From contig DWYR01000012.1 of the NCBI GenBank assembly GCA_019118565.1, forward strand, positions 13,323 to 77,322: 64,000 nt of DNA, given 5' to 3'. This DNA is from Candidatus Alistipes avicola. Its GTDB lineage: Bacteria; Bacteroidota; Bacteroidia; Bacteroidales; Rikenellaceae. How positions within the stretch are numbered: position 1 is the first letter of the stretch; each line of letters starts with the position of its first letter. The position numbers and the translations under genes were made by a program. The notes below the pieces were generated by a model that did not search any database, was not told the DNA's origin, and saw nothing but the letters and a program-made list of their open reading frames with translations. Positions 8,566-64,000 of this stretch are shown one piece after another.

Positions 8566-8667
8566 ATGAAGTACCGCAATACATACATGAATCCGTCACA
8601 CGTCGAGGCATCCGTTTCGATGATGGGTATGATGATGTCTATGCGCAGGTATAAACGCCGGGTGTAA
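8566..8667 (+). CDS. Met-rich leader peptide (33 codons): MKYRNTYMNPSHVEASVSMMGMMMSMRRYKRRV
   Basis: Hand translation. Six ATG codons fall within nine consecutive codons (8620-8643). The ORF lies between a promoter box and a terminator, directly upstream of methionine biosynthesis genes. It is too short to appear in the ORF track. Confidence 0.65.
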   Translation: MKYRNTYMNPSHVEASVSMMGMMMSMRRYKRRV

Positions 8668-8691
8668 GATTCGTCATACAATCTCACGTGA

Positions 8692-10041
<1,350 letters not shown>

Positions 10042-61484: not shown

Positions 61485-61518
61485 AAAAAAAAGCTCCCGC
61501 CCTCATCAGGGCAGGAGC
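61485..61518 (-). terminator. Intrinsic terminator (attenuator) between the Tyr-rich leader and the aromatic operon
   Basis: The minus strand reads GCTCCTGCCC-TGATGA-GGGCGGGAGC-TTTTTTTT. This is a 10-bp GC-rich stem with one G-U pair and a U8 tract. It lies 59 nt upstream of the aminotransferase ATG. Confidence 0.85.
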
Positions 61519-61547
61519 CATATCATATAACAAATCATTTTCTTTTT

Positions 61548-61634
61548 CTACGATATCATATACGAACTCCCGCCCTTACTATTGCTATAATAAGAGTAAT
61601 AATAATAGGAGTAAGTATAATTCGTAAACTTCAT
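61548..61634 (-). CDS. Tyr-rich leader peptide (28 aa): MKFTNYTYSYYYYSYYSNSKGGSSYMIS
   Basis: Translated base by base on the minus strand. There are 8 Tyr codons within 11 consecutive codons, 9 Tyr overall and one Phe. The ORF is flanked by a -7 box and a terminator, upstream of the tyrA-containing operon. Confidence 0.75.
   Translation of the reverse strand: MKFTNYTYSYYYYSYYSNSKGGSSYMIS
61567..61575 (-). promoter_or_regulatory. Antiterminator segment GGGCGGGAG inside the leader ORF
   Basis: It is identical to 9 of the 10 nt of the terminator 3' arm. It can therefore form the same helix with CTCCTGCCC (61517-61509), excluding the terminator. Confidence 0.65.
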
Positions 61635-61661
61635 CTTCTTGCTTGAGATCGAAAGACGCGG

Positions 61662-61669
61662 CAAATGTA
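61662..61669 (-). promoter_or_regulatory. -7 box TACATTTG (minus strand) for the Tyr leader / aromatic operon
   Basis: The plus strand reads CAAATGTA. A TTTG lies 19 nt upstream on the minus strand in the -33 position. The leader ATG is 28 nt downstream. Confidence 0.55.
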
Positions 61670-61773
61670 GCTATTTTTCACCAAATGTCAAAGAAAAATT
61701 TCGTTCTTTTCAAAACCCGAGCGATGTTTTTTCGAAAAAGCGCCGAAAGTCCCGGCGATTCTCCTAATTTTTG

Positions 61774-61803: not shown

Positions 61804-62874
61804 GTGAACAAAATCCACATTCAGGAAGATCTGAGCGGTCTGCGGGCCGTCATCGGAGACAGAGGCGATGTCTTTGTCATCATCGACAAAAATCTGCGAG
61901 AGTTCTACCCCTATTTTGCGGGGTTCCAACTTATCGAACTCGAAACATCGGAGCGAAACAAGACCCTCGAAACCGTAGCCATGCTCGTCAACGAGCTGCT
62001 GGAGCGGGGTGCCGACCGGAATGCCCTTATCATCGGTGTCGGCGGAGGTATCACGACCGACATTGTCGGATTCACGGCCTCCGTCTACAAACGGGGTGTG
62101 AAGTTCGCCTTCGTTCCCACAACCCTGCTCTCCCAGGTCGATGCCTCGATCGGCGGCAAAAACGGCGTAAATTTCCACGCCTATAAGAATATGATCGGCA
62201 CCATCACGCAGCCTCAGTGGATCTATATGTGTCCGGAGGTCCTCCGAACGCTTCATCCGCGCGAACTTCGTGCCGGGACAGCCGAGGCGCTCAAGACATT
62301 CGTTCTGTTCGATCCGCACTGCTACCGGCTGGCAGTCGACTATTTCGCCGAGCTGGAGGAACAACTGCAAAAAAGCGGCAGCTATCTCCTCAACGGCAAG
62401 TTCTACGGTGAGGAGCGCCTCATGGAGTTGATCGGCTGCTGCGCCCGCTACAAATGCGAAGTGGTGGAACGGGACGAATTCGAAAAGGGCGAAAGACGCA
62501 TGCTGAACCTGGGACACACCTTTGCCCACGCGATCGAGAAGGTCTGCGTCTCGACCGGTATCATGCACGGCGAGGCGGTAGCCATCGGCATGGTTCTCGC
62601 CGCCAAGGTTGCCCTAAAGATGGGAATGACCGATTCGGATTTTGTCGAGGAACTGACCGCAGACCTGAAACGCACGGGACTTCCCGTCGAAATTCCCATC
62701 GACCCGCAAAGCAGCAAACCGACCGAAATGCGGATTCTGGTCGAAGCGCTGAAAAAAGACAAGAAAGTGGACGGAGACCACATCCACTCCATCCTGCCCT
62801 GCGCTTTGGGTGATGTGAAGGATGTCAACGTACCTTTAAATAAATTGGAGGAGATTGCCGGTGATTTGCGTTAG
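61804..62874 (+). CDS. aroB: 3-dehydroquinate synthase
   Basis: 356-aa ORF with a GTG start and motifs GVGGGITTD, VPTTLLSQVDASIGGKNG, and HTFAHAIE / HGEAVAIG metal ligands. Confidence 0.92.
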   Translation: MNKIHIQEDLSGLRAVIGDRGDVFVIIDKNLREFYPYFAGFQLIELETSERNKTLETVAMLVNELLERGADRNALIIGVGGGITTDIVGFTASVYKRGVKFAFVPTTLLSQVDASIGGKNGVNFHAYKNMIGTITQPQWIYMCPEVLRTLHPRELRAGTAEALKTFVLFDPHCYRLAVDYFAELEEQLQKSGSYLLNGKFYGEERLMELIGCCARYKCEVVERDEFEKGERRMLNLGHTFAHAIEKVCVSTGIMHGEAVAIGMVLAAKVALKMGMTDSDFVEELTADLKRTGLPVEIPIDPQSSKPTEMRILVEALKKDKKVDGDHIHSILPCALGDVKDVNVPLNKLEEIAGDLR

Positions 62875-64000
62875 TGTACAAGAGAAGACGTTGCAGGGCT
62901 GTCTGGCCGTGCTGAAGGACTCCCCGATGGCGGAGTTGCGGGCCGATCTGTGCCAGTTGTCTATTGGCGAACTGGAGCAGGCCGTAGCCTCCCATCCGAA
63001 CCTGCTGATCACCTGCCGGATCGCCAACTCCAGCGAATCGTTCGCCCGCGAACAGTTGACAGCGGCACTGCGCCGGGGAGCCCGCTACGTGGATGTGGAG
63101 ATCGAGGCTCCGGAGAGTTTTCTTGCGGAGATACGGGATTGCGCCCACACCAACGGCACCCGACTGATCGTCTCCTACCACGACTTCGACGGCACCCCCT
63201 CGCTCGAAGAGTTGCGCCGCACAGCCGCCCAGTGTCGGGAGAAAGGGGCGGACATCGTCAAGATCGTCACCACGGCCCATACCATCACCGATGCCGTACG
63301 GACCTTGAAACTGTATGAGACGGACGAGTGGAAAAATCCGGGAGCACCGGCGCTGGTCGCCTTCTCCATGGGTGATGCCGGACGGTTCAGCCGTTACCTC
63401 TGCCTCCATCTGGGGGCTCCCTATACCTATGTATCTTACGGATGCGGACAGACTACCGACCCGTCGCTCTGCGGCGCTCCGACCGCACCGGGACAATACA
63501 CCCTGCAGGAGATGATGCATCTGCTGCAACCGGGACCGTTCGAAGCACCCCACTCGCTGGAGATCTCTTCAGCGCTGATTCCCTGCTCGAAAAGCGTAGC
63601 GCAGCGGGCCATTCTGGGGGCGGCCTTCGCCTGCGGAGAGAGTACGCTGGAGAACTTCGAACCCTGCAACGACATCAACGGGGCGATCGAAGTAGCCCGG
63701 GGACTCGGATGCGATGTTACCGTTACCGAGAATGCGGGACAAAAAACCCGCAGCCTACACATCAAAAGCCCCGGGATCGAGCCCCTGAAGGAGCATCTAA
63801 AATCGAACGGCGACCTTTCGCTGCACGTAGGCGAATCGGGGCTGCTGACCCGCCTGCTCATTCCGCTGGCCGCCTATCTTTCGGGCGAGGGGCACACCTC
63901 GAATTCCAACCGGGAAGTTACCATCACCGGTCGCGGCAGCCTGTTGAACCGCGACCTGGAGAGTGCAGCCACCGCCGTAAGAAATGCCGGAGCGACCTGC
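62861..64000 (+). CDS. Apparent fusion of type I 3-dehydroquinate dehydratase (N-terminal ~225 aa) with 3-phosphoshikimate 1-carboxyvinyltransferase (EPSP synthase). Partial: the ORF continues beyond the window.
   Basis: The frame is open from 62840 to the window end. It is absent from the ORF track, presumably because it has no stop or ATG. Hand translation gives VICVSVQEKTL...LIVSYHDFDGTP...ADIVKIVTTA...FSMGDAGRFSR...APGQYTLQEM (AroD-like). It then continues LEISSALIPCSKSVAQRAILGAAFACGESTLENF...GESGLLTRLLIP (AroA N-terminus-like). The GTG at 62861 overlaps the aroB stop by 14 nt. Confidence 0.75.
   Translation, partial: MICVSVQEKTLQGCLAVLKDSPMAELRADLCQLSIGELEQAVASHPNLLITCRIANSSESFAREQLTAALRRGARYVDVEIEAPESFLAEIRDCAHTNGTRLIVSYHDFDGTPSLEELRRTAAQCREKGADIVKIVTTAHTITDAVRTLKLYETDEWKNPGAPALVAFSMGDAGRFSRYLCLHLGAPYTYVSYGCGQTTDPSLCGAPTAPGQYTLQEMMHLLQPGPFEAPHSLEISSALIPCSKSVAQRAILGAAFACGESTLENFEPCNDINGAIEVARGLGCDVTVTENAGQKTRSLHIKSPGIEPLKEHLKSNGDLSLHVGESGLLTRLLIPLAAYLSGEGHTSNSNREVTITGRGSLLNRDLESAATAVRNAGATC

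Follow-up and report, generated by a model that had tools for sequence, protein, structure and literature searches.

We analysed a 64,000-nucleotide (nt) stretch of the Candidatus Alistipes avicola genome (contig DWYR01000012.1; 52.5% G+C), hereafter the window, in which an operon for aromatic amino acid synthesis on the minus strand is preceded by a short tyrosine-rich leader and a terminator. The first structural gene encodes a class I pyridoxal phosphate aminotransferase of 406 amino acids (61425-60205; Pfam PF00155, E 1e-66). This protein scores under every NCBIfam equivalog cut-off, and its operon context suggests that it takes part in making aromatic amino acids. Next come a gene for a bifunctional DAHP synthase/chorismate mutase (60170-59100; Pfam DAHP_synth_1 and CM_2, best NCBIfam match NF009239) and tyrA, encoding prephenate dehydrogenase, the enzyme of the tyrosine-specific branch (59048-58215; Pfam PDH_N, best NCBIfam match prephenate dehydrogenase, below cut-off). 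A 16-pair hairpin with a T-run (58171-58136), 44 nt past the tyrA stop codon, marks the end of the operon. On the other side of the leader lies aroB (61804-62874, plus strand); since aroB is divergent, the leader terminator cannot belong to an upstream gene. The locus is an aromatic-pathway gene cluster without pheA, the gene for prephenate dehydratase.

Anatomy of the leader

The leader carries a Bacteroidota-type promoter, with a -33 element TTTG (61692-61689) placed 19 nt upstream of the -7 box TACATTTG (61669-61662; consensus TAnnTTTG), an arrangement established for Bacteroides promoters. Transcription is predicted to start near 61656, which would leave a 5′ untranslated region (UTR) of about 21-23 nt. 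The leader open reading frame (ORF) starts with ATG at 61634 and consists of 28 codons and a TAG stop, encoding MKFTNYTYSYYYYSYYSNSKGGSSYMIS (61634-61548, TAG at 61550-61548). It contains nine tyrosine (Tyr) codons and one phenylalanine (Phe) codon, and eight of the Tyr codons fall within codons 6-16 (61619-61587). The leader codons are thus enriched for the amino acid made by the operon, in which tyrA is present.

Four segments of the minus strand can pair with one another. The regulatory Tyr run itself is segment 1 (UAUAC, ACUCCU, CUCUUAUUAU), the 5′ strand of the 1:2 helix. Segment 2, AUAGUAAGGG-C-GGGAGU-UC-GUAUA (61582-61559), is able to partner either segment 1 or segment 3. Its core AGGGCGGGAGU (61576-61566) is the same as the terminator 3′ arm over 10 nt and includes the duplicated 9-mer GGGCGGGAG (61575-61567), a copy of that arm. 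Segment 3 (UAUAUGA, a UAUG bulge and GCUCCUGCCCU; 61529-61508) serves both as terminator 5′ arm and as 3′ strand of the antiterminator, and segment 4, AGGGCGGGAGCU (61503-61492), is the terminator 3′ arm. The intrinsic terminator GCTCCTGCCC-TGATGA-GGGCGGGAGC (61518-61493, then U8 at 61492-61485) follows the leader ORF and precedes the first structural gene, with 59 nt from its U-tract to the aminotransferase ATG; a terminator scanner lengthened its stem to 12 pairs (61519-61492). A first, sequence-only reading of this DNA had described the promoter, ORF, duplicated segment and terminator, and all of its sequence statements were confirmed base for base on the minus strand of 61800-61300.

A run of eight Tyr in 11 codons occurred once in about 95,500 stop-free 11-codon windows in the six frames of the 64 kb, the next independent maximum being six. 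The 178-nt leader RNA folds with z = -4.1 relative to dinucleotide shuffles. Three copies of GGGCGGGAG, two of them in the leader, were found in the 64 kb where 0.88 was expected; taken alone, this count is weak evidence. That the leader is more than chance is argued decisively by its conservation among relatives, described below.

Alternative folds of the leader RNA

The terminator, formed by segments 3 and 4, has 12 base pairs (bp) and a predicted energy of -24.8 kcal/mol. In the minimum-free-energy fold, codons 6-16 (61619-61587) are paired with 61582-61559 to give the 1:2 helix (-18.0 kcal/mol), whose 5′ strand overlaps the regulatory codons. A transcript ending before segment 4 folded into the 2:3 helix, of 18 bp with a 4-nt bulge (-28.5 kcal/mol). 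This antiterminator is mutually exclusive with the terminator. The sequence-only reading had recognized the terminator and the antiterminator, and both were found to covary; it had missed the 1:2 hairpin between the Tyr codons and the antiterminator segment, which on an attenuation model is the structure that the stalled ribosome actually melts.

Conservation of the leader in Bacteroidales

Relatives were collected by an aminotransferase scan keeping one genome per species, which provided 80 Bacteroidales/Marinilabiliales loci with 58-91% identity. The closest relative in the genome collection is a Rikenellaceae metagenome-assembled genome (aminotransferase identity 91%). An aromatic-rich short ORF and a terminator were present upstream of the orthologous operon at 71 of the 80 loci, spanning Rikenellaceae, Tannerellaceae, Dysgonomonas, Bacteroides, Paludibacteraceae, Alloprevotella and Marinilabiliaceae. 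Typical leader peptides of these relatives are MRQHRFTYSYFYYFYFSTR and MNAFRFTYYFFFYFYFSQKVEREFVCIK. The distance from leader to aminotransferase is about 1 kb in nearly all relatives, because pheA is the first operon gene there; in most Bacteroidales, the Phe+Tyr leader family precedes pheA, the aminotransferase gene, the DAHP synthase/chorismate mutase gene and tyrA. Preservation of the ORF, the aromatic run, the duplicated segment and the terminator at these 71 loci supported the attenuator interpretation first drawn from the window by itself.

The leader family was defined by an alignment, A2, and a covariance model, R1, built from 67 leaders, with the window, L001 and L041 (Alistipes putredinis) left out. 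R1 recovered the window leader (minus strand, 61634-61485) with 91.9 bits (E 5e-14), and the match took in the full model, positions 1-142 of 142. It also recovered the left-out relatives L001 (79 bits) and A. putredinis (85 bits).

No leader was detected at nine of the 80 loci. At L074 the leader ORF is masked as 100 N in the stored record (2895-2995) and the terminator immediately after it is intact; low-complexity masking can conceal such leaders from searches. At L023, L032, L034 and L067 the locus is cut by a contig end, and R1 matched partially at the cut ends of L023 and L032. L011 and the group L006, L028, L033 and L063 are taken up where the attenuator is weighed.

Conservation extended to the reading frame. 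In 70 of 70 aligned leaders the frame of the aromatic run can be traced back to an ATG without meeting a stop, compared with 1/70 and 2/70 for the other two frames, and the differences in run length among relatives are multiples of 3 nt. Of 71 leaders, 69 had a TAnnTTTG box in the 90 nt that precede the ATG, compared with 4.9% of background 90-nt windows. The gap from box to ATG is 27 nt in the window.

The same gap measures just 8-9 nt in 17 relatives (L010, L013, L015, L017 and others), implying an almost leaderless mRNA.

Covariation of the alternative helices

Helix counts were made on a 70-sequence alignment, A1. RNAalifold, applied to the whole leader alignment, returned only the terminator as consensus, with compensatory changes in 7 of 10 pairs. 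The 1:2 and 2:3 helices were specified by hand and then tested by counts and controls.

The 2:3 antiterminator was paired in 87.1% of cells, compared with 40-51% when the partner was slid by 1-3 columns. Changes on both sides of the helix were found in 65 cells, compared with 23.5 ± 3.7 in shuffles, and 0/500 shuffles reached the observed covariation score. An alignment-free test gave the same picture: the duplex of segment 3 with the segment 2 region of its own locus averaged -15.4 kcal/mol, compared with an average of -12.2 ± 0.3 kcal/mol when segment 3 was swapped among loci, and 0/5000 permutations were as low. Comparison of the duplicated segment across relatives, which the sequence-only reading had put forward as a check, thus confirmed that it covaries with the terminator 5′ arm. 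Lineage-specific versions of the 2:3 pairing include GCGGGAAU:AUUCCCGC, GAGCAGGAU:AUCCUGCUC, CAGGUGGG:CCCACCUG and GAAGCGGGAU:AUCCCGCUUC.

In the 1:2 helix, the partner of the aromatic codons (consensus UUUUACUUU) is AAGGUAAAG, immediately 5′ of the GGGAG core, and an outer ACAUAC:GUAUGU helix closes the structure. Across the 70 leaders, this helix was paired in 86.1% of cells, against 42-55% in slid controls. Both partners had changed in 12 of its 16 pairs, where shuffles gave 7.6 ± 1.3.

Leader codons and the absence of pheA

Wherever the operon includes pheA (67 leaders), the core run contains two or more Phe codons; the medians are five Phe and four Tyr. The corresponding Phe/Tyr counts are 0/8 in the window, 0/8 in L001 and 1/5 in A. 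putredinis, and none of these three has pheA between leader and aminotransferase. A tblastn search detected no pheA in the 64-kb window nor in the examined flanks of L001 and L041. The window therefore departs from the family pattern of a mixed Phe/Tyr run with pheA as first controlled gene. The earlier proposal that the codon bias of the leader matches the content of the operon was upheld: leaders of pheA operons mix Phe and Tyr, and those of the pheA-less Rikenellaceae carry Tyr, apart from the single Phe kept in the A. putredinis core.

The replacement of Phe codons was accompanied by changes in the RNA partner. Where the inner 1:2 helix of the family has the consensus C-UUU-UAC-UUU, the window has C-UCU-UAU-UAU. 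The Phe replacements UUU→UCU and UUU→UAU are matched in segment 2 by A→G and A→U, and 10 of 10 pairs are kept. In A. putredinis the same Phe codons are replaced by CUU and UCG, which are also compensated, as read from alignment A1.

The sole exception to the match of codons and operon is L050 (with metagenome contigs L151 and L152), where an F-rich leader stands directly before the aminotransferase gene and pheA is missing. Alignment of L050:3630-3985 with L069, at 86-91% nucleotide identity, revealed a deletion of about 900 nt that removes pheA and leaves the first ~10 pheA codons and the F-rich leader. L050 was not retained as a counter-example, this being a recent clean pheA deletion relative to L069.

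Taken together, these comparisons support the view that leader codons track operon content, with few independent events behind it, and the window element appears to be a Tyr-only offshoot of a Phe+Tyr leader family. A wider scenario is more tentative, and we give it less than an even chance: an uncurated Phe/Tyr attenuator family would extend across the order Bacteroidales (and Marinilabiliales), and in Rikenellaceae it would have been retuned to Tyr alone after pheA left, the Phe codons being purged singly with compensating substitutions in their partner.

The Tyr run is also polymorphic. Among about 59 A. putredinis-type metagenome contigs (L081-L127 and others), in which the leader lies ~190 nt upstream of the aminotransferase gene, the run reads FTYSYYYYLYS in 38 and FTYSYYYLYS in 20, a difference of one regulatory Tyr codon.

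A ribosome-mediated attenuator as the favoured interpretation

We consider it probable (roughly 0.85) that the leader is a classical ribosome-mediated, or leader-peptide, transcription attenuator reading the charging of tRNA-Tyr, as a Tyr-only derivative of the Phe+Tyr family. Transcription would start ~21 nt upstream of the leader ATG, and segment 1, with the Tyr codons, and segment 2 (AGGGCGGGAGU) would form a hairpin on emerging. If Tyr-tRNA is plentiful, a ribosome translating the ORF would pass the Tyr run and reach the stop codon. The 1:2 hairpin would then re-form behind it (or form without translation), segment 3 would pair with segment 4, and RNA polymerase would stop at U8, yielding a transcript of ~170 nt. 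If Tyr-tRNA is scarce, the ribosome would stall on codons 6-16 and keep segment 1 single-stranded. Segment 2 would take segment 3 as soon as it is made, and the resulting 18-bp antiterminator would prevent the terminator, allowing transcription to enter the aminotransferase gene, the DAHP synthase/chorismate mutase gene and tyrA.

Several observations weigh against such an attenuator. The case is made entirely of sequence comparison and predicted folds. At equilibrium, the full-length leader always folds into the terminator. Constrained folding, with a ribosome-sized unpaired stretch placed at each Tyr codon, still gave the terminator as minimum-free-energy structure in every case, and without a ribosome the 2:3 helix (-28.5 kcal/mol) outweighs the 1:2 helix (-18.0 kcal/mol) once segment 3 exists. 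Switching must therefore be under kinetic control, which we assume by analogy with the E. coli trp leader. Since thermodynamics alone cannot display the switch, folds of truncated transcripts and covariation were used as evidence. Transcription and translation are not known to be coupled in Bacteroidota. L006, L028, L033 and L063 had no leader, and L011 and L128 retain the RNA switch (segment 2 and terminator) without the aromatic run.

The position of the stop codon is a further difficulty. The sequence-only reading held that a ribosome translating through the leader must cover the duplicated segment. In the window, 17 nt separate the segment 2 core from the stop codon downstream of it, so a terminating ribosome would cover at most the GUAUA 3′ extension of segment 2, and occlusion of the segment is doubtful. 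In 33 relatives the stop lies 3-10 nt upstream of the core. An off state produced by ribosome occlusion fits those 33 relatives but fits the window poorly; there, the off state is more likely brought about by the 1:2 hairpin, folding again once the ribosome has passed.

At L011:118-222 and L128:282-386, the R1 match (35 bits) is placed directly upstream of the aminotransferase gene and the ORF is MLQIYNTVTILTSNKLITKHIFEIDKSRVYLRLVKAGVACDIL, without aromatic run. This leader may be a decayed or re-purposed attenuator.

Other explanations

Among the other explanations, the one that survives best, though still unlikely, is that a trans factor and not the ribosome works the switch. The factor would be a TRAP/PyrR-type protein, an uncharged tRNA or a metabolite, with the Tyr-rich ORF incidental to a U/A-rich strand. 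The aromatic codons do double as part of the 1:2 helix, and structure could account for their nucleotide conservation (TTTTACTTT hardly varies); the persistence of segment 2 and terminator without aromatic run at L011 and L128 is in line with this. A weak PyrR-site alignment by cmscan (30 bits, gathering score 54) reflects a like layout of terminator and antiterminator. However, the in-frame ATG found in 70/70 leaders, against 1-2/70 in the other frames, and the restriction of indels to multiples of 3 nt argue for translation. Moreover, which amino acids the run encodes goes with the gene content of the operon, compensation preserving the helix, Rfam scans gave no T-box, riboswitch or protein-binding family at threshold, and the leader contains no conserved unpaired motif hinting at a ligand pocket.

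A second proposal would add to the attenuator, not replace it: the ~170-nt leader RNA or its peptide might also act in trans. There is a precedent in rnTrpL/peTrpL of Sinorhizobium (PMC7968998), and the attenuated transcript, ending in a stable hairpin, would be abundant in Tyr-replete cells. The sequence indicated no target, and the three helices and the codons fully account for the conservation; we regard this additional function as improbable.

Least probable is an arrangement with no conditional readthrough, in which the ORF and terminator form a small-protein gene in its own right, or the terminator acts as a constitutive insulator that separates the operon from the promoter region on the aroB side. 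Promoter, ORF and strong terminator do make up a complete small transcription unit, and the terminator always forms at equilibrium, but reading of the 59 nt from U-tract to aminotransferase ATG revealed no separate promoter box, so that the operon would be promoterless. Conservation is seen in the RNA pairings and not in the peptide beyond its aromatic run, covariation of antiterminator and terminator would be purposeless for a constitutive terminator, and no protein family or database entry was found for the leader peptides.

Comparison with known leaders

No Rfam 15 family reached its gathering score, either in the window or in nine related loci; the families covered included the Phe, Trp, His, Thr and Leu leaders, Bacteroid-trp and T-box. 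At E up to 10, solely sub-threshold, terminator-driven alignments appeared (PyrR, atoC, Thr_leader, BTnc201), for instance Thr_leader with 22.5 bits (gathering score 55) and PyrR with 30 bits (gathering score 54). NCBIfam and Pfam scans of six leader peptides identified no family, and exact look-up of seven leader peptides in a collection of 15 billion proteins found none present.

The archetype of ribosome-mediated attenuation is E. coli trpL. The window leader resembles it in having regulatory codons in an ORF at segment 1, mutually exclusive 1:2, 2:3 and 3:4 helices, and an intrinsic terminator placed ahead of the biosynthetic genes. It differs in sensing Tyr rather than Trp, with eight regulatory codons rather than two; in lacking a Shine-Dalgarno sequence and using a Bacteroidota -33/-7 promoter; and in its stop codon, placed 17 nt downstream of segment 2 where that of trpL lies just upstream. 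Bacteroidota start translation without Shine-Dalgarno pairing. No homology to Trp leaders was indicated, as cmscan returned no such family at E up to 10.

Rfam also holds a Phe leader family, the enterobacterial pheL. Like the window element, pheL is a leader-peptide attenuator with an aromatic codon run that controls an enzyme of the prephenate branch. However, pheL uses Phe codons only and controls pheA alone, whereas the Bacteroidales family combines Phe and Tyr codons and precedes pheA, aminotransferase, DAHP synthase/chorismate mutase and tyrA genes, and the window has Tyr only. No pheL match was obtained by cmscan at E up to 10.

The Tyr T-box of Firmicutes likewise reads tRNA-Tyr charging and governs terminator readthrough upstream of tyrosine-related genes; it does so by binding uncharged tRNA directly, without translation, and no T-box match was found in the window. 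The aroR leader of Corynebacterium glutamicum, reportedly described by Neshat et al. in 2014, lies upstream of aroF, a DAHP synthase gene that it controls, and encodes a leader peptide with mixed aromatic codons. It belongs to another phylum, has a very short peptide and is not known to be homologous.

Within the phylum, the Bacteroid-trp motif is interpreted as a leader-peptide attenuator. It lies upstream of tryptophan genes and was classed as cis-regulatory and not as a switch (RF01692; Weinberg et al. 2010, PMC2864571). The window leader differs from it in amino acid and operon and has no detectable similarity to it in Rfam scans. Bacteroid-trp shows that attenuation in this phylum is not itself new.

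Candidate attenuators in Bacteroidetes/Chlorobi are reportedly mentioned in the abstract of Vitreschak and colleagues from 2004. We found no description of the present leader in the searchable literature; a phe attenuator of Bacteroidetes may have been predicted earlier, by Vitreschak et al. 2004 and by Lopatovskaya et al. 2010, and priority for the leader family is uncertain. Seliverstov et al. 2005 (PMC1262725) list only His, Thr and Phe as attenuator-regulated, and tyrosine as T-box-regulated. For Bacteroidaceae, a comparative survey of 2013 gives no more than two RNA regulogs (PMC3766115). Small ORFs "reminiscent of leader peptides" in some of the long 5′ UTRs of Bacteroides are noted by Ryan et al. 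2020, with nothing more specific, and their supplements have no entry under the operon gene names tried.

The mechanism proposed here is a textbook one with predicted precedents in the phylum, and nothing in it is mechanistically unexpected. Its most interesting aspect is the retuning to Tyr alone with compensated codon replacement. If the wider scenario given above is right, this would be the first described tyrosine-specific ribosome-mediated attenuator and a natural case in which the amino-acid specificity of an attenuator was rewritten with the three-helix switch preserved, codons of the sensor having been exchanged and the pairing strand adjusted to match. Should the attenuator work through the ribosome as proposed, it would show directly that in this phylum translation trails RNA polymerase closely enough to steer folding of the nascent RNA; its action without Shine-Dalgarno pairing, on near-leaderless mRNAs in some relatives, would offer a handle on coupling in Bacteroidota. 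Control of amino acid biosynthesis in gut Bacteroidales is poorly mapped, and the leader family provides a testable cis-regulator of the aromatic operon across many gut genera. Model R1 could serve to annotate these leaders, which are currently missed in genomes.

Other features of the window

In assemblies with an identical aminotransferase, aroB is followed by a gene for a 692-amino-acid dehydroquinase/EPSP synthase fusion, which in the window would run past the end at 64000. As read from the sequence, aroB has an apparent box of its own, TAAATTTG, near 61770, and no leader.

A second R1 match in the window (8635-8730, E 0.13) was rejected as another copy of the Tyr leader: it is the terminator of a separate, Met-rich leader-like element at 8566-8730 on the plus strand. 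A whole-window scan for short ORFs with amino-acid runs and terminators returned this element, the Met leader mentioned in the sequence-only reading, as the only other candidate. Its ORF, MKYRNTYMNPSHVEASVSMMGMMMSMRRYKRRV, has six Met in eight codons. The terminator GAATCCGGCTG...CAGCCGGATTTTTTT comes next, and shortly after it, at 8759, begins a gene whose product resembles O-acetylhomoserine sulfhydrylase.

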